64,000 nucleotides of DNA. Origin: a virus. The stretch lies in the IMG/VR virus record IMGVR_UViG_3300032261_000561, one strand, 5' to 3'. How positions within the stretch are numbered: the first letter of the stretch is position 1; each line of letters begins with the position of its first letter. Below are positions 1 through 62,537 of this stretch, piece by piece. Below the pieces are notes generated by a model. It made no database searches and was not told the origin of the DNA. It worked only from the letters and a program-made list of their open reading frames with translations. A program made the position numbers and the translations under genes.

Positions 1-1733
1 GGATCGGGGTTGACGTAGACCGAGGGGTTCGCCTGGAAAGCCTGGTAGGAGTTGGTGTAGCTGTCCAGCTTGACCACTAGCGCGGTCATGACCCCCTGGA
101 AATCCTTGTAACCCACCTCGCCGTCGAAGGTGATCTTGGTGGGCAGGTTGGGAGCGGGCAGTGTGGTGTTGACCAGGCTGGTGCCGTCGGGCAGCACCAC
201 CGACAGGAAGACCTGCGGCACCGGACTGCTGTAGACCCACCCGGCCACGATGCGCAGCGGGATGTACGGTGCCGGGGGCGGGTAGAGGGACGCCGAGAAG
301 AGGATCGGGGTTTCCCCGTTGGTGAATTCGAGCACCACTTCCAGGGCACCGCAGTCGAAGGAGAGCACGGGCCAGTACTGATCACCCCCGGCATTGGGCG
401 GGAAGACCCCGGTCACGGTGGTGACCACCTTGATGGTGGGCTGCGGGATGCCGGTCAGCGAGTCGGTGTACTGCAGCAGCGGCACCGGCTGCTGACCCAG
501 CGCCCCGTAGAAGCTCGCCGCCCACGGGCCCCCGGCATTCCCGGTCACCATGATGTTGCCGATGCCCAGCAGGGATTCCAGGGCTGCCTGGATGTCGTCT
601 CCGGTGGCGGTATCGGTCAGCGGGCCGGTGTAGTTGATGCCGTCGAGGCTCAGCGCGAACGAGCCGCCGGTCGCCGTGCCGTTGAGGGAGATCATCTGCA
701 CGGCGCTGATCCCCGGCGCGACACCGAACAGGGTGGGGTTGACCGGCGGCGCGTTAGTCACCGGGTCGAAGTTCGGTGTCCACACCACCCCGATCCACGC
801 GGGCTGGCTGATCTGTGGCCCAACTGCCATGGGTACCACGTAGACACTGGTCTGACCGGGGTCGGAGATGTCGATCAGCCCGATCCCAGCCGTCCACTGG
901 GTGTTCTCGTCGAGATCCGGCGGCAAGCTGATCGGGCTCAACTTGCGGGTCCCCACCGTGTCGTCGGTCGAATAATAAACATTTAAATTCTGGTTGGTGT
1001 AGACGGGGTCCAGGTACAGCGTGTCGATTAGCTGCGGCGTGCCATCGGGGTTGCGGAAGTCCAGGTAGAGACTGACCACCGCGTCGGGGCCGGGCTGCGG
1101 AGAACACTTCCAGAAGGTGGTGGGCTTGTCGTCGATCGCATCGGGAGCGTCCCAGTCCTGGATGTATTTGGTGATAACGTTGCCCAGCGCGTCCTGCTCG
1201 GGCTCCATGGCCTGGGTGCCATCGTTGCGGGCGTAGATGTTGCGCCGGATCAGCCCGTTGCGCAACCCGATGTTGAACGGCCGGTTGCCCAACGTGAGAT
1301 CGAGGTTACGGCTGATGCGGAACTGCACCGCCCGAGCCACGATCGGGTAGGTGTAGACGTGGTACTTGTACCAGGAAACCTCCTGGCTGGGCGCCAGCGT
1401 GATGGTCATCGGCTGGTAGTTCTCGTCCCGCATCTGGATCCAGTTGTTGTTGCGATCCTTGTACCAGACGTTAAAGGTGCAGGCCACCCGCATGATCTCG
1501 ATCGAGAACTCCCCGATGGACAGCGGCAGCTTGAAGTTGATGGTCAGGATCTCCTGGGTGGGGTCGCTGCTCGGCCGGGGCTGGGAGAACCACACTCGGG
1601 CCACCGGCAGGTCGGCCAGCTGCGGCACGTTGGGTGCGTACTGCTGGTTGGAGATCAGGTCGTTGAGCAGGTTCACCAGCGTCAGTGGCCAGTGGTAGTT
1701 CAGGTACATGCCGTCCAGGGCGCTACCGACCAT
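1..1733 (-). CDS. Baseplate/minor tail protein, runs off the left window edge
   Basis: ATG at 1733 after GGGGAG; reads MVGSALDGMYLNYHWPLTLVNLL...; the same frame is coding-like at position 3; follows baseplate genes; absent from the ORF track because it has no stop in the window. Confidence 0.7.
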   Translation of the reverse strand, partial: MVGSALDGMYLNYHWPLTLVNLLNDLISNQQYAPNVPQLADLPVARVWFSQPRPSSDPTQEILTINFKLPLSIGEFSIEIMRVACTFNVWYKDRNNNWIQMRDENYQPMTITLAPSQEVSWYKYHVYTYPIVARAVQFRISRNLDLTLGNRPFNIGLRNGLIRRNIYARNDGTQAMEPEQDALGNVITKYIQDWDAPDAIDDKPTTFWKCSPQPGPDAVVSLYLDFRNPDGTPQLIDTLYLDPVYTNQNLNVYYSTDDTVGTRKLSPISLPPDLDENTQWTAGIGLIDISDPGQTSVYVVPMAVGPQISQPAWIGVVWTPNFDPVTNAPPVNPTLFGVAPGISAVQMISLNGTATGGSFALSLDGINYTGPLTDTATGDDIQAALESLLGIGNIMVTGNAGGPWAASFYGALGQQPVPLLQYTDSLTGIPQPTIKVVTTVTGVFPPNAGGDQYWPVLSFDCGALEVVLEFTNGETPILFSASLYPPPAPYIPLRIVAGWVYSSPVPQVFLSVVLPDGTSLVNTTLPAPNLPTKITFDGEVGYKDFQGVMTALVVKLDSYTNSYQAFQANPSVYVNPD

Positions 1734-1748: not shown

Positions 1749-4631
1749 TCATGACGACGTGCTCGCTCCCGCCGGTGCCCCCGACGACGTCGTGAAAGCC
1801 CCGGCCACCCAGCCGGTGGAAGTGCTGATCAACGGGCGCGCACGGGTGAGCGACCTGGACACTGTGGACTCCTGGGTCGGCGCGATGTAGGCGATGGCCA
1901 GATCGGGGGTGAACACCTCCTTGGTGATCGCGGATTGCCCGAGCGGCAGCCGGAAGTGGAACTGGTCGGCCTGCCCGCCCATGCTCTGCACCTGGGTGAT
2001 CTTGGCCGCGATGTAGGTCTGCTCGGACGGCCAGGGGAACACGTAGGGGGTGCCGTCGGGATTGACCGCCGGGGCATTCGCCGGAGTCTTGCCGAACTTG
2101 CCGCCCGGGTAATTGTCTGGGCTGTCGATGATGTCGTAGGTCTGCCAGGGCCCGTAGTTGGACACCGAGGTGAAAGCCTCGAAGTTCTGCGCTGGCCGGT
2201 AGGTCCGCATGGGATCGGGCGCGGGTACCACGTAGGGGACGGAACGGCTGGCGAACGTGTTGAGGTAGTCGCGCGCGATCTGGTAGCCACTGCGGGGATC
2301 CCCGGCGATCTGGGTGACCGTGTCGTAGGTGGCGTGCGGGTCCTCGGTGGACGCGTAAGACACCGTGGCCAAGATGTCGGCCTCCACCTGGGCCACGTTC
2401 ACCGGCGCGGTGGGGAACTGCCGCGTGATGACGCCCGGGTCACCCGCATAGGCGGCGATCGTCGCGTCGAAAATGGTTGCCGCCCACAGGTCGTCAGTGG
2501 TGTTCCCATGGGTGCACAGCAGGTCGTCGGGGTTAGCGAACTCCCACCACAGGGACTCGGTACCGCTGAGCCGGTTGGCCGAGATGCCGTGGCCGCCGGG
2601 ATCGGTGCCCTCGGGGAAGATGACGCCCGCCTCACGCCGGGGGGAGCCGAAAGACACCGCGCCCAGCAGATCCACCCGGCGGTGTTGCATGGCGCCGGTG
2701 CGCAGCTGGTCATAGACCGTGGAGGTGACGATGGCCCCGATCCCCCGCCCGATCAGCAGGAAGGGCCCGATGTTGCGGTTGATCATGATGATCAGAGCGG
2801 AAACGGCCGCGTCAATGCCCTCTTGTAGCGGCAGCTCGTTCAGCATGGGCCACGGCACGTAGACGTAGCGGATGCGCGAGTCCAGCTTGCCGTCGAACCA
2901 CGAGGTGGGGGGATTGGCCAAGTAGTCGGTGACCTCGTAGCAGGTGACCTGGGTGGTGACCGCAGGCGGGGCCAGCGCCGCCAGGCTGGGGATGGACAGG
3001 CTGTTGATGTAGTCGGCGCCGATCTGGATGCAGTTGCGCGCGTCACCGGGGACCGGGTGGTAGTTGGGGTTCTGGTAGAGCCCGTGCGCACTGTTGGTGA
3101 CCACGCCGTAGAACAGATCCAGGAAGTTCTGCAGGAGGATCTCGGCGTTGGTGATGGCGCCGGTGAGCAGCGCGGCCAGCGGGGACAGGATGCCGTTGTA
3201 GCTGTTGTAGATCAGCTGGTACACGGCTTCGTTGTTGGAGCCGGGGACGGTGTCGTGATTAGTGCAGATGAGATCGCCGGGTGCGGCGAACTCCCACCAC
3301 AGCGGCTCACAGTCCTGCAGCAGCTCCCAGCCCTGCACGCCGTGCCCGCCCGGGTCTGGGCACATCGGGAAGGTGACGCCGGGCTGGCGCCGTGGGTTGC
3401 CGAAGGCCAGGCCAGCCAGCAGGTCTGGGCGCCGGGCCTGCAGTGAGCCGGTGCGGATCTGGTCATAGACGTCGCTGATGATGGTGGCGCCCTGGTCGTA
3501 GCCCACCAGGATGAAGGGGCCCGGGATCGAGTTGATCGCACCGATCAGGTTGGCCACTCCTTGGGCCACGCTCTGGTTCATCGGGTAGAGGTCAGCCTGG
3601 TAGGGCACCGGGACCCACTGGAAGAAGTCGGCGTTCAGGTTTTGGGAAAACCAGTCGTCGGTGGGCACGCCCAAAGCCACGTTGCTGACCAGGTTGAAGG
3701 CTCCCGACAGCTCGAAGACGGTGACTTTCACCGGCCCGAAAGGGTTGATGGTGCCGTAGGTCACCGAGTCGATCGGGCTGCGGCTACCCCCGCCCACCAG
3801 GTAGTAGTATGCATACTCCTGGCTGATGTTGAACTGCGCGTACGGCGCCAGTGTGGGATCGCCGGAATACATCCACGTCTCGGTGGGCAGCAGGTCGATG
3901 GGCAGCAGATCCGGCGGCGGCAGCTGACTCATAATCGGGGTCGGCGTGACGATTTTCTGGACCTCGAAGTAAGTCGAGTCGGCGGCGGCCGCCACCGCGA
4001 ACACCGGGGTGAGCACCGGAATCCCGTGGACGTTGACGGTGATGACGATGTCGATGCTCATGAACCGGGAGAGCATGTCGCGCACCAGCCGCATCTCCTC
4101 GGGCCCCATGGAATCCTTGTGCGGCTTGATCACCAGCTCGTTGCGTGCGCTGGACGGGGAGCGCCCCATGTCTAGGGTGATGCCGAAATTATCGATGTAC
4201 CTCCATATTTCAAACGTGTCGCAGTCCACCGACGACGCGGCCTGCACACACATGCGCACACCCTCGACGGTCGAACCCAGTCCGCAGGCCTTGAAGAAGT
4301 CGCGGATGCGCGCCCGGTACCACGCATCCTTGACCCTGACTTCGTTCCACTGCGGGGCCGTCAGGGTGTCCCGCGAGGGGTTGTAGGGGTAGGACTCCTC
4401 GGGTGCGCGGACCAGGATGGCGGTGTTGCCAAAGACATAGTCGAGGTCGGTGCCAAAGATCGTCTCCATGGCACCGGCCAGCCGGGCGACGAACACCTCG
4501 TTGACCAGTCCGCCCGCCCCGCAGGTGCCGCAGATGGCGTCGATCAGCTTGTACAGGTTGGTATCCGGCGTGCCGACATAAGCGGTGTCGTCGCAGTGCA
4601 TCAAGAGCATCTCGGTGCTCTTGGGAGGCAT
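1749..4631 (-). CDS. Baseplate wedge-type protein with two inserted lysin B/cutinase-like (alpha/beta-hydrolase) domains
   Basis: 960 aa directly after baseplate J; GYDQGA...FGNPRR...GGHG...WWEFA and GRGIGA...FGSPRR...GGHG...LWWEFA; possible true start at ATC 4658. Confidence 0.7.
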   Translation of the reverse strand: MPPKSTEMLLMHCDDTAYVGTPDTNLYKLIDAICGTCGAGGLVNEVFVARLAGAMETIFGTDLDYVFGNTAILVRAPEESYPYNPSRDTLTAPQWNEVRVKDAWYRARIRDFFKACGLGSTVEGVRMCVQAASSVDCDTFEIWRYIDNFGITLDMGRSPSSARNELVIKPHKDSMGPEEMRLVRDMLSRFMSIDIVITVNVHGIPVLTPVFAVAAAADSTYFEVQKIVTPTPIMSQLPPPDLLPIDLLPTETWMYSGDPTLAPYAQFNISQEYAYYYLVGGGSRSPIDSVTYGTINPFGPVKVTVFELSGAFNLVSNVALGVPTDDWFSQNLNADFFQWVPVPYQADLYPMNQSVAQGVANLIGAINSIPGPFILVGYDQGATIISDVYDQIRTGSLQARRPDLLAGLAFGNPRRQPGVTFPMCPDPGGHGVQGWELLQDCEPLWWEFAAPGDLICTNHDTVPGSNNEAVYQLIYNSYNGILSPLAALLTGAITNAEILLQNFLDLFYGVVTNSAHGLYQNPNYHPVPGDARNCIQIGADYINSLSIPSLAALAPPAVTTQVTCYEVTDYLANPPTSWFDGKLDSRIRYVYVPWPMLNELPLQEGIDAAVSALIIMINRNIGPFLLIGRGIGAIVTSTVYDQLRTGAMQHRRVDLLGAVSFGSPRREAGVIFPEGTDPGGHGISANRLSGTESLWWEFANPDDLLCTHGNTTDDLWAATIFDATIAAYAGDPGVITRQFPTAPVNVAQVEADILATVSYASTEDPHATYDTVTQIAGDPRSGYQIARDYLNTFASRSVPYVVPAPDPMRTYRPAQNFEAFTSVSNYGPWQTYDIIDSPDNYPGGKFGKTPANAPAVNPDGTPYVFPWPSEQTYIAAKITQVQSMGGQADQFHFRLPLGQSAITKEVFTPDLAIAYIAPTQESTVSRSLTRARPLISTSTGWVAGAFTTSSGAPAGASTSS

Positions 4632-4667
4632 CCACGGCCAGGGGTTGTTGGTTGGGATGGTGTCCTC

Positions 4668-7199
4668 CTACGGGCTCGCTACCCGTGTGATGATGGCGCC
4701 CAGGTAGTAGGCCACCTGATTATCGTTGAGCTTGAAGTCGTCGTCGTACACCGCGATCGGGTCAGGGTCCTCGGAGTTGGCGAACACCCGCACGCCGTGA
4801 ACATCAGGATTGTCGGTAGTGGTGGTGATTTTGACGTCGTCCACGCCCAGGATTTGAGTGACCACGGTGCACAGCATGGTGAATTTGATCTGGGCCCCGA
4901 ACGGACAGGCGGCGACGAAGCTCTGCAGCCGGGTGGCCAGTGCCGCATTGACCACGGCGGGGGAGTAACTGCGGTTGTATTCGATGGACAGGCAGGGCTG
5001 CAGGTAGACGTAGTCGGCTTGATGCACCAGCACATCGGTGCACAGCTGTTTGGAGGAGGTCATCACCGAGTCGAGGACCTCGGGCACCTGGTTGTACACG
5101 TATTCTAAGGTCAGCTCGGTGCCGGTGGTCGGGCCGGTGGAATCCCACTCGATCCCCGAGGCCTCTAGGCGCGAGCCCTGCAGCTCTGTGCGGTCGGCCA
5201 GCACGTAGTAGTGGGTGCCCATGATGTAAATCTCGGGACCCACCGTCAAGGTGGGTGGGAAGGTCACCAGCGGCACATTGCCCAGTCGGGTGTAACGGTT
5301 GGTGGCCGTCGGATTGCCCGGCGAACCCATCCGAATGAAGTTGCCGGTGTAGAGCGGGTCGTCGACCAGACTGGAAAGCGTGACGCCGCTGATGATGGTC
5401 TGCTCGGTGACACTGTAGGGCGCGATGCCATCGCAGAAGATGTCGACTTTGTTGGTGATCCCGTTCACCGGGTCGTTGCGGCTGCAGGTGGGGGTGTATT
5501 GGAATTCCAGGTCGACGATGTCGTCCTGATTGATCACGCCGGTAGCCACCCGGGTGAACACCGGCGAGACGCCGGTGGACAGCATGTAGTCGTCGCCCTC
5601 GGTGTAGAACGTCTCGTCTTCCTGGCCCAGGTTGATGAAACAGCTGGTCATACCGGTGTTGTGGCTCAACAGCCCTTCTGCCACCAAGGTGTTGGTCGAA
5701 GTAGACAACGCCACCACATCCTGGACGCCAGCTTCTTCGACCGATATCACCTTGGCGAAGTTGCTGTTCTTGCCGACGATGCAGCTTCCGTACAGATCGC
5801 TCATGAACTTAGGGGCGAGTCGAGCGCTCTTGAAGATGCCGAAGAAGCGCAACCGCTCATCCATACCACCATGAAGCAAGATCTCCTGGCAGCAAGGGTC
5901 GGGTGATAGACCTGTGCTGCGGGTTCGGGCTACGGAGTGCTTGAACTTATTCCTGGCCAGCAGGTCCACGATCTTGTCGAAAACCGGGCCGGGGTTCTGC
6001 AAGATCGTGACATTGTGCTTGTTGTAACTGGCCTCGCCGTCAGTAATCCCGGCCATCCAGCCAGCCTCGAAGGATAGATCCTCATCCCAGGAAGGAACGT
6101 ATCTGATCTGGTCACCAGGCAAGAGATCCTTGGTTTTGACCCACTGAACATTCTGGGTGTTTCGGATGACACCGCGTCTCTTGCCCGTATGTCCGACACG
6201 TCGCCCAGAAACCAGCCACATGTGATCAGCGGTGGAGGTGACCGTGGTGCCGTTATCCATCGTCACCATAAGGGTGCGAGCAGGACAGATATAAGACTGC
6301 GTAACCCGAGACTGACGCCACTTTCTCTTATTGCCGCGCCCCTCGACAGACTCGTCGAACCCGACGATCAGATCTCCAACCCGAAGAGAGCCCACGGGCA
6401 CCCAGTCCAGGCCGTCGGTAAGGACTCGTGTCTCTGGGATGAGGCACCATACGTACTTGACGTCCTGGTCGACCGGCAGCGCTACCGTCGTCGAGGGCGC
6501 GGCGATCTGCGTGGTGTAGAGCACGGTGGGACCGAAGACAATCACCCGGGTGACCGAGGTGTTTTGCTGGCATAGCGCGATGTACCAGTCGGCGGTCCCG
6601 GCCACATTGCGCAGGAAGGTGTCTTTGAAGCGCTGCCTTAACGCATCGTCGGTCTCGGGGTCGGTGCCGTCGGTCATGGCCTGCAGGTTGGTGACCGCCG
6701 AAGATCCGATCGCGGTGGACAGATTGGTGACCGCGCCCGGCGGCACGTTGCCCGAGACACCGACCGTGGTGCAGGTGACCGGGACGTCCACCGAGTAGTC
6801 ACCGGCCGGGAGCACCACCGACTGGTTGGCCGCGTAGTACAGCTGCACACTGGCCCCGGCCAGACCGGCGGTGGTGTAGAAGGTGGTGCCCTGCTGGATG
6901 GTGTAGTCGGTGGTGGAGGCCACCGTCAGGGTGACCCGCACGGTGCCCTGCGCATAGGTGCCCTGCAGCCTGCCATAACCGAACAGCCCGACGAACTGTT
7001 CCAGCTCCATCCCGGCCTTGGTGTCGACGTCCAGCAGCGAGCCCAGCAGATAGGTGTCGATGGAGGCGGCCGCGATCTGCTCGGCGCAGGCGTCGATGAT
7101 CTTGCGCTCCGGCGTACCAATGGCACACGACAGCGTCGGCATGGTCAGCGCCAGCTGGGCCAGAATCTGCTGGCTGATCTGGTCAGGTGTACCGGGCAT
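4668..7199 (-). CDS. Baseplate J-like protein containing an intein
   Basis: Baseplate J-type motifs (GVSGNVPPGAVT, GTDPETDDALRQRF); next to a gp25-like gene. Confidence 0.85.
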   Translation of the reverse strand: MPGTPDQISQQILAQLALTMPTLSCAIGTPERKIIDACAEQIAAASIDTYLLGSLLDVDTKAGMELEQFVGLFGYGRLQGTYAQGTVRVTLTVASTTDYTIQQGTTFYTTAGLAGASVQLYYAANQSVVLPAGDYSVDVPVTCTTVGVSGNVPPGAVTNLSTAIGSSAVTNLQAMTDGTDPETDDALRQRFKDTFLRNVAGTADWYIALCQQNTSVTRVIVFGPTVLYTTQIAAPSTTVALPVDQDVKYVWCLIPETRVLTDGLDWVPVGSLRVGDLIVGFDESVEGRGNKRKWRQSRVTQSYICPARTLMVTMDNGTTVTSTADHMWLVSGRRVGHTGKRRGVIRNTQNVQWVKTKDLLPGDQIRYVPSWDEDLSFEAGWMAGITDGEASYNKHNVTILQNPGPVFDKIVDLLARNKFKHSVARTRSTGLSPDPCCQEILLHGGMDERLRFFGIFKSARLAPKFMSDLYGSCIVGKNSNFAKVISVEEAGVQDVVALSTSTNTLVAEGLLSHNTGMTSCFINLGQEDETFYTEGDDYMLSTGVSPVFTRVATGVINQDDIVDLEFQYTPTCSRNDPVNGITNKVDIFCDGIAPYSVTEQTIISGVTLSSLVDDPLYTGNFIRMGSPGNPTATNRYTRLGNVPLVTFPPTLTVGPEIYIMGTHYYVLADRTELQGSRLEASGIEWDSTGPTTGTELTLEYVYNQVPEVLDSVMTSSKQLCTDVLVHQADYVYLQPCLSIEYNRSYSPAVVNAALATRLQSFVAACPFGAQIKFTMLCTVVTQILGVDDVKITTTTDNPDVHGVRVFANSEDPDPIAVYDDDFKLNDNQVAYYLGAIITRVASP
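5658..6446 (-). mobile_element. Intein (263 aa) with LAGLIDADG-type endonuclease block
   Basis: Starts CLIPETRVLT, block B TSTADHMW, LAGLIDADG-like GWMAGITDGEAS, ends VAEGLLSHN followed by Thr(+1); codon usage differs from the exteins. Confidence 0.9.
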
Positions 7200-60368: not shown

Positions 60369-61102
60369 GGAAATAGGCCCACGGGTCCAGTGGTGGGTCC
60401 AAGCTGCCCTTGCAATGGTCCCGGTGGTGGACCTAATGGTCCTGGCGGTGGAGGCTCTGGCGGCGGTGGAGGCTCTGGCGGCGGCGCACCGGGCGGCGGT
60501 GGGGGTGGGAGCAATTCAGGCCCCGGTACCAAACCTGGGGGAGGCCATTGATTATCAGGGGTAGGCCCTTGAATTGCCCAAGGCACACCCCATCCATCTG
60601 GGATAATATCTGGATCATTTAATTTAGGGTGGTCAGGTTGCCCAGGAAAGACGCGCCAGCAATTAAACATTATTGCCACAGGCGTAAAGCCACCCCATTC
60701 ACAATGGGTGTGCATATTGCCATGTCCCCCAATAAGTTCACGAAAATCAAAGTCGCAATAACCCCCACCGCCACCAAAGGCGGCACCGGCGGCACCGACA
60801 CCGGGACAAAGAAAAACTCCCCCGGTTGGCGGGGCCAGAGCAGGAGCACCGAAACCGACACCCGGTTGACCACCGATACCCGGTGTATTACCACCCGGCG
60901 CCGAACCACCGCCGCCGCCCAAACCGCCCAAGCCTTCACCCAATGAAGGCAGGGCCCCGATGATCCCACCACCACCGGGCGGCGGAAGGGGAGGAACGGG
61001 CACCGGCGGAATCGGTATGGGTTGGGCCTGGGCCTGCGGATCCCAGAAGGAGAACAACAACGTCAAAGACAGCAGAACGAAAAGGACGACGATTTTCCTC
61101 AT
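60365..61102 (-). CDS. Secreted Cys-rich, Pro-rich protein A
   Basis: ATG 61102 overlapping the lysB stop; signal peptide MRKIVVLFVLL...AQA-Q; GGYCDF...HTHCEWGG. Confidence 0.7.
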   Translation of the reverse strand: MRKIVVLFVLLSLTLLFSFWDPQAQAQPIPIPPVPVPPLPPPGGGGIIGALPSLGEGLGGLGGGGGSAPGGNTPGIGGQPGVGFGAPALAPPTGGVFLCPGVGAAGAAFGGGGGYCDFDFRELIGGHGNMHTHCEWGGFTPVAIMFNCWRVFPGQPDHPKLNDPDIIPDGWGVPWAIQGPTPDNQWPPPGLVPGPELLPPPPPPGAPPPEPPPPPEPPPPGPLGPPPGPLQGQLGPTTGPVGLFP

Positions 61103-62028
61103 GCTGCAAGCGCCGTCGCGACCCGATTGACCAGCCATCCATAGAGAGCGGGAACATAGGGCCCGTACTGCCAGTGTGGAGCATTCGTCCCGGCCAGCGC
61201 GAAGGTCATGCCGTTGAAGATGGCGTGGCACAACGCGATCGTGTTGGACAACGGGTACTCGAACTCCTGGGCCACTCCTTCGGCGACGGCCATGATGCCC
61301 TCGATCAAAGAGCTGGACTCGATGAAGTTATAGATCCGCGTCTCGATCTGACCGACCAGGGGCTCACTGACCCACGGGGCGCCGCTGTCGATGACGGCGG
61401 TGCCCACCGGCGGACCGACCGGCGCGCTGCCGTACAGGTCCCCGTCCAGGTTGATCGAGAGGAGGCAGTCCGGTGTCTGCTCCGGTGTCAGGCACGTGGG
61501 CCCGGCGATGCCGCCAGGGATCACCCCGTCCAGCGGCTTGGCCACCGAGATCCCGGCGACGATGTTGCCGTTGCTGATGCCGGGGCAGTGCATCGGGTCC
61601 CCGAAGTTGATGATGGACCCGCGCACCGTGATGTCTTCCAGCCGGTTGTGGTGCGGGCCAGCCGGATTGAGCACCAGATCACGCCAGAACACATCGGTCA
61701 CCAGGGCGCCCTGGCTGTAGCCGCCGATATTCAGCGAATCGCCCGGCACATTAGTGCCGTTCTGCTCATGCAGCGTGACCTGTCGGCTGATCTCGCCCAC
61801 CCCGGCCTCCACCGATGGGTTCATCGGGAAGACGGCCGCCGGATAGCCGATCGGCTGCCAGATGATGTCCAGCCCATAAGCCCGGTGGGCGGCGTCCCCG
61901 TAGAACTGGGTGCTGATGCTGTTCCACGGGTTGGTCAGCATGCGGCCGATGTCGGAGGCGAACCCCGGGCCGAACGGATCGGCAACACCTGTCCCGTTAA
62001 CACTGCAGAACATTGGGCGCCCCATCAC
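61099..62028 (-). CDS. lysB: Lysin B (mycolylarabinogalactan esterase, cutinase-like)
   Basis: NGTG, WQPIGYPAAVFPMNPS, GYSQGA nucleophile elbow, FGDP, GDLY, C-terminal PH. Confidence 0.85.
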   Translation of the reverse strand: MMGRPMFCSVNGTGVADPFGPGFASDIGRMLTNPWNSISTQFYGDAAHRAYGLDIIWQPIGYPAAVFPMNPSVEAGVGEISRQVTLHEQNGTNVPGDSLNIGGYSQGALVTDVFWRDLVLNPAGPHHNRLEDITVRGSIINFGDPMHCPGISNGNIVAGISVAKPLDGVIPGGIAGPTCLTPEQTPDCLLSINLDGDLYGSAPVGPPVGTAVIDSGAPWVSEPLVGQIETRIYNFIESSSLIEGIMAVAEGVAQEFEYPLSNTIALCHAIFNGMTFALAGTNAPHWQYGPYVPALYGWLVNRVATALAA

Positions 62029-62537
62029 GCCGCCCCTTTCCTGCGACGGCGATACTCCTGCTCACACCTCCGACACACACGACGATTGCCTTTATAGCGG
62101 GTGTTCTCGGCATCGTAAGGATGATTTTTCGGACAACGCGTTTTGCGAGCCATGTTGTGAGTACCGTGCCGGACCATATCGAAAGTGTTCTCGGACCGCG
62201 TGTCCCACCGCAGATTCGTCCGACGATTATTGAAAGGATTCCCGTCGTTGTGGCAAGCCTCCATCCCTGGTGGACAGGATCCCTCGAATGCCGTCAGCAC
62301 TAGCGTGGCTACCTGCTCAGTGGAGTAATCAGGCTTACGCCGATAGAGCTTTACTTGCTGATGACTATCATCGCTACCGCCCCCGAACTGCTTCAAAATG
62401 CACGCCGGAACGGTATACGGTCTGCCATTACTCCGAATCACCACGCGTCGGACAGATCGCACCTGACCTTGGTCTGATACTTCGTACTGCCCTTCGTACC
62501 CCACGACAGGGAGCCAACCTTCCATCGGCCTGCCCAT
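62025..62537 (-). CDS. NUMOD4-HNH homing endonuclease
   Basis: WLPVVGYEGQYEVSDQGQVRS; EACHNDGNPFNNRRTNLRWDTRSEN; CPKNHPY...CRRC. Confidence 0.9.
   Translation of the reverse strand: MGRPMEGWLPVVGYEGQYEVSDQGQVRSVRRVVIRSNGRPYTVPACILKQFGGGSDDSHQQVKLYRRKPDYSTEQVATLVLTAFEGSCPPGMEACHNDGNPFNNRRTNLRWDTRSENTFDMVRHGTHNMARKTRCPKNHPYDAENTRYKGNRRVCRRCEQEYRRRRKGAA

Follow-up and report, generated by a model that had tools for sequence, protein, structure and literature searches.

Tandem LysB-like domains without a serine nucleophile in a viral baseplate-region protein

Lysin B (LysB) of phage D29 is a mycolylarabinogalactan esterase of the lysis cassette; what, then, might two copies of its fold be doing in a structural protein? 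This question is raised by a gene at positions 1749..4631 (minus strand) of the virus sequence IMGVR_UViG_3300032261_000561, the whole 64,000-nucleotide stretch of which we call the window. A preliminary description, made from the letters alone, had read the gene product (P0001) as a baseplate protein with two tandem LysB-like repeats that lack the catalytic serine. The repeats are indeed there: the two halves of the region (aa ~298-555 and 556-800) share 35% identity over 232 aa (E 4e-44), and a hidden Markov model (HMM) of the family places both. The parts of the gene, as we delimited them, are as follows.

1749..4631, minus strand: DUF7297 virion/baseplate protein gene (P0001, 960 aa), an open reading frame (ORF) without stops, assigned by Pfam and PHROGs
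3744..4631, minus strand: N-terminal DUF7297 part (aa 1-296), with SPIDSVTYGT as its last residues before the insert (Pfam, junction alignment)
2244..3743, minus strand: two-domain LysB-like cassette of ~500 aa (aa 297-796), missing from the ~450-aa orthologs
2970..3734, minus strand: D1 (aa 300-554), predicted LysB/cutinase-like alpha/beta hydrolase fold with Asp at the nucleophile position (HMM E 7e-107)
3486..3503, minus strand: nucleophile elbow of D1, with D379 (GAC) in place of the catalytic Ser
3273..3275, minus strand: D453 (D1), counterpart of Asp166 of D29 LysB, invariant in 11 orthologs
3084..3086, minus strand: H516 (D1), counterpart of His240 of D29 LysB, invariant in 11 orthologs
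2250..2957, minus strand: D2 (aa 559-794), predicted LysB/cutinase-like fold with Gly at the nucleophile position (HMM E 3e-102)
2733..2750, minus strand: elbow of D2, with G630 (GGG) in place of the catalytic Ser
2523..2525, minus strand: D703 (D2), counterpart of Asp166, invariant in 11 orthologs
2334..2336, minus strand: H766 (D2), counterpart of His240, kept in 10 of 11 orthologs (Gln in P0012)
1752..2243, minus strand: C-terminal DUF7297 part (aa 797-960), the second Pfam stretch

A two-domain insert in a DUF7297 protein

The insert matches PHROG 102, the LysB endolysin family, in two stretches (E 3.8e-63), and its similarity to D29 LysB is detectable by phmmer against 3HC7 (E 2e-4), as is its similarity to the cutinase-like proteins Rv3802c and MSMEG_6394 (E 0.0017-0.0042). 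D1 also matches the Pfam family PE-PPE (28.5 bits, over the cut-off of 21), while the match of the insert to Pfam Cutinase, at 23.6 bits, stays just under the cut-off of 25.9. When the domains were aligned with D29 LysB (sequence from NC_001900) in both multiple and profile alignments, S82, D166 and H240 of the enzyme fell opposite D379, D453 and H516 of D1 and opposite G630, D703 and H766 of D2. The serine nucleophile that defines the G-x-S-x-G elbow is therefore absent from both domains, and the Asp and His of the triad are present in both, as the preliminary description had proposed; the motifs that it named also lie exactly where it put them (GYDQGA 3486-3503, GRGIGA 2733-2750, GDLIC 3264-3278, DDLLC 2514-2528, SAHG 3081-3092 and DPHA 2331-2342).

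The structural models point the same way. In an AlphaFold (AF2) model of the whole protein both domains were predicted with a pLDDT (predicted local distance difference test) of ~80, as against <50 for the DUF7297 parts, and the best Foldseek match in the PDB was D29 LysB (3HC7, E 9.7e-8), followed by Rv3802c and MSMEG_6394. Superposed with VIA-align, D2 (model residues 560-792) matched 3HC7 with a Z score of 21.2 and a root-mean-square deviation of 3.1 Å over 217 residues, and D1 (model residues 298-553) was closest to Rv3802c (5W95, Z 19.9) and MSMEG_6394 (3AJA, Z 19.1), at 22% identity. Both domains are thus modelled with the cutinase fold that the preliminary description expected from a comparison with D29 LysB. 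D29 Lysin B (gp12) and the insert have in common this cutinase-like alpha/beta hydrolase fold with a helical insertion, membership of PHROG 102, the G-x-X-x-G-A elbow, a GNPxR motif and the positions of the catalytic Asp and His. They differ in that the insert has Asp (D1) or Gly (D2) where Lysin B has its Ser nucleophile, in that Lysin B is a free protein of ~250-330 aa whereas the insert consists of tandem copies inside a baseplate-region structural protein, and in sequence, identity between the insert and the LysB proteins of isolated phages being as low as ~20-36%. The best structural matches of D1, Rv3802c (Culp6) and MSMEG_6394, are cellular envelope proteins, whereas D1 is a module of a phage structural protein.

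The protein that carries the domains is a DUF7297 protein (PF23970, E 1.4e-187) whose Pfam match is split by the insert into two stretches: residues 1-297 correspond to profile positions 10-306, and the C-terminal part aligns past the insert. Against PHROGs, it matches PHROG 2813 (E 3.6e-172), a family of virion structural proteins. The metagenomic DUF7297 proteins found number more than 400 and are mostly of ~450 aa, and the orthologs of cluster C myophages, at ~425-450 aa, have no insert. A tblastn search returned Myrna gp137, Alice gp137, Phrappuccino gp87, Stormageddon gp52 and Finch gp59 as orthologs of 51-56% identity; they come from Mycobacterium, Gordonia and Rhodococcus myophages that belong to cluster C or are related to it, and their matches are confined to the first ~297 and the last ~165 residues of P0001. 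By region, the N-terminal part is 53-57% identical to the cluster C orthologs and the C-terminus 47% identical to that of Pinkcreek gp135. No close DNA relative of the gene was found by megablast against 50,697 phage records. The preliminary description had suspected ~490 aa of the protein to be an insertion into a baseplate protein, and the insert-free cluster C orthologs bear the insertion out. By alignment, the insertion point lies directly after the conserved SPIDSVTYGT and ahead of an xDGSVxxEPNF segment; in an AlphaFold prediction for P0168, an ortholog that has no insert (mean pLDDT 62), it is a beta-hairpin turn (E303-306/E312-315).

What kind of structural protein this is can be judged from its two neighbours.

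4668..7199, minus strand: upstream neighbour, a Baseplate_J (gp6-like) protein (Pfam PF04865, E 2.7e-26; PHROG 6, baseplate wedge subunit)
3..1733, minus strand: downstream neighbour, a large minor tail protein (PHROG 2840), the gene being truncated by the window edge

The order Baseplate_J, DUF7297, large minor tail protein is found in the window and in five other loci (L001, L003, L004, L006 and L007), and the DUF7297 genes that belong to such a block, from metagenomes and from cluster C phages, number more than 400. Myrna gp137, Alice gp137 and Phrappuccino gp87, for example, are the same scaffold at the same place after Baseplate_J, and differ from P0001 in having no LysB-like insert. Since its upstream neighbour is Baseplate_J, the DUF7297 gene can be placed in the baseplate wedge module. 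The model of P0168 gave no Foldseek match in the PDB at E <= 0.001; its weak matches (E 3e-3 to 0.13) were to baseplate chains in 11 of the 12 best rows listed, and came from phi812, phiCD508, diffocin, a Streptomyces contractile injection system (CIS), cyanophage A-1(L), XM1, pyocin R2, Bas63 and P1. On synteny and these weak structural matches, it is reasonable to regard the DUF7297 gene product as a putative baseplate wedge protein.

Ancestry of the cassette and related domains in other tail proteins

The window also encodes a LysB of its own, ~57 kb from the cassette, which itself is internal to the 960-aa structural protein and not a stand-alone gene.

61099..62028, minus strand: ordinary lysis LysB with Ser, Asp and His motifs present (PHROG 102, E 3.1e-34)

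With its GYSQGA elbow (Ser codon AGC), GD and PH motifs and PHROG 102 match, this gene looks intact, as had been supposed. Its product and D1 share 30% identity over 97 aa (E 1e-6), with GYSQGA opposite GYDQGA, and D2 alone shows no significant similarity to it (E 1.3), being tied to the LysB family through D1, PHROG 102 and structure. On the domain tree the window's LysB is the most distant row, on the longest branch. The idea that the insert is a re-used copy of this phage's own lysB did not survive the comparison, and a recent copy as its source was rejected. No further LysB-like copy was found by the family profile HMM in six frames of the window, the downstream tail gene included.

Where the cassette may have come from is better judged from its orthologs, a family made up of the window protein and ten metagenomic proteins (P0004-P0013) that likewise combine DUF7297 with a double domain, and whose inserts are 42-82% identical. 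All eleven D2s carry Gly where the nucleophile would be. D1 is more varied: five proteins (P0005-P0009) have GYS[QRLI]GA as its elbow, three have GYDQGA or GADMGA, and the other three have G[YF]G[QL]GA. On the domain tree the D2s form one clade (99) and the D1s another, and the sister of the D1 clade (94) is a stand-alone, Ser-bearing protein of 249 aa (P0023), encoded on a contig of 1.5 kb. The Ser-less D1s are scattered over this tree: those of the window and P0004 (Asp), P0012 (Asp), P0010 (Gly), and P0011 and P0013 (Gly). At the codon level, the relatives' Ser is AGC and the window has GAC, a change that takes two base substitutions; the possible intermediates, Gly (GGC) and Asn (AAC), both occur at the elbow position in relatives. 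The motifs around the pocket (GNPRR, DPGGHG, WWEF, GD, H..Y and GDxR) are invariant or nearly so in both domains of the eleven proteins.

The simplest reading of these sequences is that the tandem cassette originated once, at a time when D1 was active and D2 had already become inactive, and that D1 then lost its serine several times independently. Ser would be ancestral in D1, which probably arrived as an active esterase. This departs from the preliminary description, in which ready-made pseudo-esterases had been grafted into the baseplate protein: five of the eleven D1s and the nearest stand-alone relative keep the serine, and only D2 is always without it. Its broader idea, a lysis enzyme re-used as a binding module, is supported in part, namely for the insertion, the modelled fold and the loss of the serine, and is not supported for the arrival as pseudo-esterase or for an origin from the phage's own lysB.

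The cassette and the scaffold have different histories. When a tree was built from the DUF7297 scaffold, the proteins with a double insert did not all group together; they form two or more separate groups with good support, from which we conclude, at the level of sequence, that the cassette has moved by recombination among DUF7297 scaffolds or has been lost repeatedly. Other proteins have single-domain and intein-like inserts at the same site. Those with one domain there are P0190 (elbow GTSEGA) and P0233 and P0083 (GHTLGA). Two metagenomic DUF7297 proteins of 775 aa, P0264 and P0273, carry at this hairpin an insert unrelated to LysB, perhaps an intein, which starts ...SVSYGC. Judging by these alignments, the hairpin site looks like an insertion hotspot.

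Two more proteins deserve mention here. The metagenomic P0189 (500 aa) has no cassette, yet it has the junction motif ADPMSTYR that otherwise comes after the cassette; it groups with the single-insert P0190 on the scaffold tree, may have lost an insert secondarily, and also carries a ~40-aa insert elsewhere. Pinkcreek gp135 of a Mycobacterium phage (L001:5974-8352, 792 aa) was considered as a single-domain intermediate and rejected: its ~340-aa insert contains a LAGLIDADG_3 domain, is likely an intein, and sits at a different site, after residue ~156.

LysB-like domains are not confined to DUF7297 proteins. An exhaustive HMMER search over 1.84 billion representatives returned 365 domain matches, many of them embedded in proteins of 600-2,300 aa, the majority of which bear the Ser. 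All 12 long carriers that were scanned are actinophage minor tail proteins (PHROG 2840, 346, 382, 356 and 416). Among them are homologs of the gene downstream of P0001: in related phages, these PHROG 2840 proteins have one LysB-like domain after ~aa 55, and the window's copy has none. Of the six loci examined, four have the domain in DUF7297 (the window, L002, L003 and L007) and two in the next gene (L004 and L006); none has it in both. Among the PHROG 2840 proteins, P0022 has Ser at the elbow and P0015 has Gly, and both P0017 (GEDQGA) and P0020 (GYDQGA) have Asp. On the domain tree the P0017/P0020 Asp clade stands apart from D1, which indicates that the change from Ser to Asp arose there independently. 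Compared with the window's cassette, metagenomic minor tail proteins such as P0022, P0049, P0058 and P0081 (PHROG 2840/346) carry the same domain family in the tail or baseplate of related phages; they differ in holding a single copy, mostly with Ser, in another host protein, i.e., the gene after DUF7297 or a siphophage tail protein. The Ser-less ones among these carriers have Asp (P0017/P0020) or Gly (P0015, P0095, P0134 and P0157). Six further metagenomic proteins of 600-950 aa (P0025, P0052, P0091, P0094, P0124 and P0139) have one Ser domain and one Gly domain each; with several such proteins at hand, the predicted tandem of an active and an inactive LysB-like domain is a recurring design, like the ancestral cassette.

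Isolated phages gave a different picture. A tblastn search with the insert against the 50,697 phage records matched 1,905 places in 1,903 records, and in all 100 rows that were inspected (the top 40, and 60 spread over lower ranks) the match is to a lysin B or endolysin gene, the best at 36% identity. Isolate homologs of two of the domain-bearing tail proteins have no such domain. In the literature searched we found no report of a tail-embedded LysB-like domain, which does not prove that none exists. By their sequences, then, tail-embedded LysB-like domains form a wider set, not previously described, to which the window's cassette belongs. That these architectures were not found in the phage records suggests that the isolates, mostly grown on M. 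smegmatis, miss such biology.

Selection on the insert and its possible role

Is a domain pair without nucleophiles still of use to the phage? We compared the gene with its 87%-identical ortholog in L002 and obtained the following ratios of nonsynonymous to synonymous substitution rates (dN/dS).

N-terminal DUF7297: 0.16
D1: 0.37, the highest of the gene
D2: 0.22
C-terminal DUF7297: 0.27

The insert is under purifying selection. D2 has kept its Asp in all eleven proteins and its His in ten, though its Ser was lost before the family diverged to as low as 42% identity. At least 20 soil metagenome runs contain at least 95% of the gene's sampled words, and in four soil runs contigs extend over D2 (1905-2975) and D1 (2956-3705) without differences or indels. 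No RNA run was listed among the sequencing runs that match the gene. At the DUF7297 flanks (1749-1915, 3747-3906 and 4391-4574), the soil runs contain two alleles, ~5-8% different, whereas the insert assembles in a single form; there may be a co-occurring relative with this DUF7297 scaffold and either a different insert or none.

The tails of phages are known to carry envelope-degrading domains; examples are the peptidoglycan-hydrolase motifs that occur in the tape measure proteins of mycobacteriophages and the esterase domains of tailspikes. The insert resembles these in concept, being an envelope-acting fold that has become part of a tail protein and would serve at entry; it differs from them in that its target layer would be the mycolate outer membrane, not peptidoglycan or O-antigen, and in that its nucleophile is missing. 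The host is presumably a mycolic-acid-containing actinobacterium, and the phage an uncultured soil myophage. From its position after Baseplate_J, the DUF7297 protein would correspond to the wedge protein of P2 (gpI) and T4 (gp7), the 'triplex' protein, and a cassette inserted at the modelled hairpin turn would be displayed on the baseplate. In the ancestral cassette, as we picture it, D1 was probably an active Ser-Asp-His mycolyl esterase and D2 its pseudo-enzyme partner, altered from Ser to Gly; carried on the virion, the pair would have attacked the mycomembrane at entry. In the lineage of this phage D1 would also have lost its serine (AGC to GAC, Asp), so that probably neither domain hydrolyses esters. 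The conserved pocket (Asp, His, GNPRR, DPGGHG and WWEF) may now hold a mycolyl-arabinogalactan or an acyl-trehalose glycolipid uncut, and the module might thereby aid adsorption or orient the baseplate on the mycomembrane.

The proposal that the module is displayed on the baseplate and, derived from LysB as it is, binds mycolyl-arabinogalactan or an (acyl-trehalose) glycolipid without hydrolysing it is in our judgement about evenly poised between right and wrong; display on the virion, the ligand and the binding role are all inferred and may be otherwise. A few arguments speak for it. The serine of D1 has been lost repeatedly with the domain kept, from which it can be argued that catalysis is dispensable for the virion role, and this repeated loss, together with the retention of Asp and His in a D2 that is always Ser-less, fits a role in binding. 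No embedded copy with Ser that could compensate was found in the downstream tail gene or anywhere else in the window. Surface glycolipids are counted among the known mycobacteriophage receptors, and acyl-trehalose glycolipids (TPPs) are reported to be needed for infection by phages BPs and Muddy (PMC10465359), which makes a glycolipid ligand plausible. D29 LysB in free form is reported to block adsorption, probably because it takes determinants off the surface (PMC13463830); an active esterase on the virion could accordingly carry a cost.

Other points weigh against such a binder. Exposure of the insertion site is a deduction from models in which DUF7297 is poorly predicted (pLDDT <50 when the whole protein is modelled, and 62 for the ortholog). 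That Asp and His are kept, and that no fewer than two unrelated clades have Asp at the elbow, could mean that some chemistry has been retained. The dN/dS of D1, which exceeds that of the flanks, also fits a partial relaxation of selection, and the four soil runs with identical contigs may stem from one sampling campaign and hence not be independent.

Retained chemistry is the first of the alternatives to be weighed. Some alpha/beta hydrolases, for instance haloalkane dehalogenases and epoxide hydrolases, have an Asp nucleophile at the elbow, and D1 might still be an enzyme in which the elbow Asp, with H516 and D453, serves as nucleophile or general base, with altered chemistry or an altered substrate. 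Its Asp sits precisely at the Ser82 position, with the remaining triad and the next Gln kept; despite the two base changes needed from AGC, Asp is found in three groups (the window with P0004, P0012, and P0017/P0020), and at L006 the sole virion-embedded copy found is the Asp form. We nonetheless regard this as improbable: D1 has no Pfam match to Asp-nucleophile families (Abhydrolase_6, E 0.62), its structural neighbours are all cutinase-like, and sister lineages exchanged Ser for Gly, which cannot be a nucleophile, and retained the domain. Nor is there clear co-adaptation, since in a search for co-substitutions that track the independent Asp forms only Glu436 stood out, unconvincingly, being common to all Asp forms and also present in some Ser and Gly forms. 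An Asp nucleophile acting on an ester would give an anhydride intermediate, which is not known to occur among cutinase-like esterases.

A cassette that is merely decaying, the remnant of an active virion esterase now serving as folded spacer or structural bulk with no specific ligand, would account for the absence of both nucleophiles, for the top dN/dS in D1, for the many DUF7297 proteins that have no insert and for the repeated gain or loss implied by the scaffold tree. We think it unlikely, somewhat less so than a catalytic D1, in view of dN/dS values far under 1 in both domains, pocket motifs (Asp, His and the three named above) that hardly vary across inserts 42-82% identical, and metagenome contigs free of frameshifts, stops and indels; moreover D2, Ser-less through the whole divergence of the family, is better conserved than D1. 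That the protein is no part of the virion at all, and instead a second, non-canonical lysis or envelope-modifying factor encoded among tail genes, strikes us as very improbable. LysB domains of isolates do otherwise come from lysis genes only, in the phage rows inspected, and this is what such a reading can draw on; it is opposed by the conserved block of Baseplate_J, DUF7297 and tail protein, by annotation as minor tail or virion structural protein, by weak fold matches that go to baseplate wedge chains and by the twelve other long carriers of the domain that were scanned, all minor tail proteins.

More broadly, and more tentatively, so that we would sooner doubt than assert it, the LysB folds of tails and baseplates could be a hitherto unrecognised entry device of uncultured soil actinophages. 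Ser copies would cut mycolate esters and so open the mycomembrane at infection; the Asp and Gly copies, which evolved recurrently, would recognise mycolyl-arabinogalactan or acyl-trehalose glycolipids, either as receptor-binding domains that trap the substrate or as catalysts based on Asp. In that case a lysis enzyme has been turned into an adsorption module, and the DUF7297 hairpin is an exchange site for such cassettes. Little is understood of how the phages of mycolic-acid bacteria get across the mycomembrane at entry, and a fold previously seen, in the phage rows inspected, as that of an exit gene appears to have been built repeatedly into baseplate and tail proteins of soil actinophages, both intact and without the nucleophile. 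Among these proteins are candidates both for a mycomembrane esterase carried on the virion and for a receptor module, descended from such an esterase, that binds lipid or glycan; the domains might also be of use as probes or binders for the envelopes of mycolata. The elbow series of Ser, Gly, Asp and Thr would be a natural set in which to follow the change from enzyme to binding protein.

The start of the gene and neighbouring genes

The nine codons upstream of ATG 4631 (window 4632-4667) read IPTNNPWPW, and those of the ortholog locus L002 read VPTNNPWPW; third-position differences between the two are synonymous, and the stretch bears a likeness to the N-terminus of the family (..PFPLMPP). 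With nine conserved codons before the ATG, translation of P0001 probably begins upstream of it, perhaps by a few codons. There is no ATG, GTG or TTG in 4632-4667, and an ATC at 4658-4656 lies 5 nt past AGGAGGA. The stop codon of Baseplate_J, TAG, is in frame with the DUF7297 gene; L002 has an in-frame GTG further upstream.

Near the other end of the window, directly upstream of lysB, is a gene for an HNH endonuclease (PHROG 1492, E 7e-66; 62025-62537, minus strand), whose stop overlaps the start of lysB. The Baseplate_J protein of the window (4668-7199, minus strand) is itself longer than its counterparts, with 843 aa as against 581-588 aa in L003, L004, L006 and L007, and PHROG 6 matches it in two stretches, consistent with an insertion of ~260 aa.

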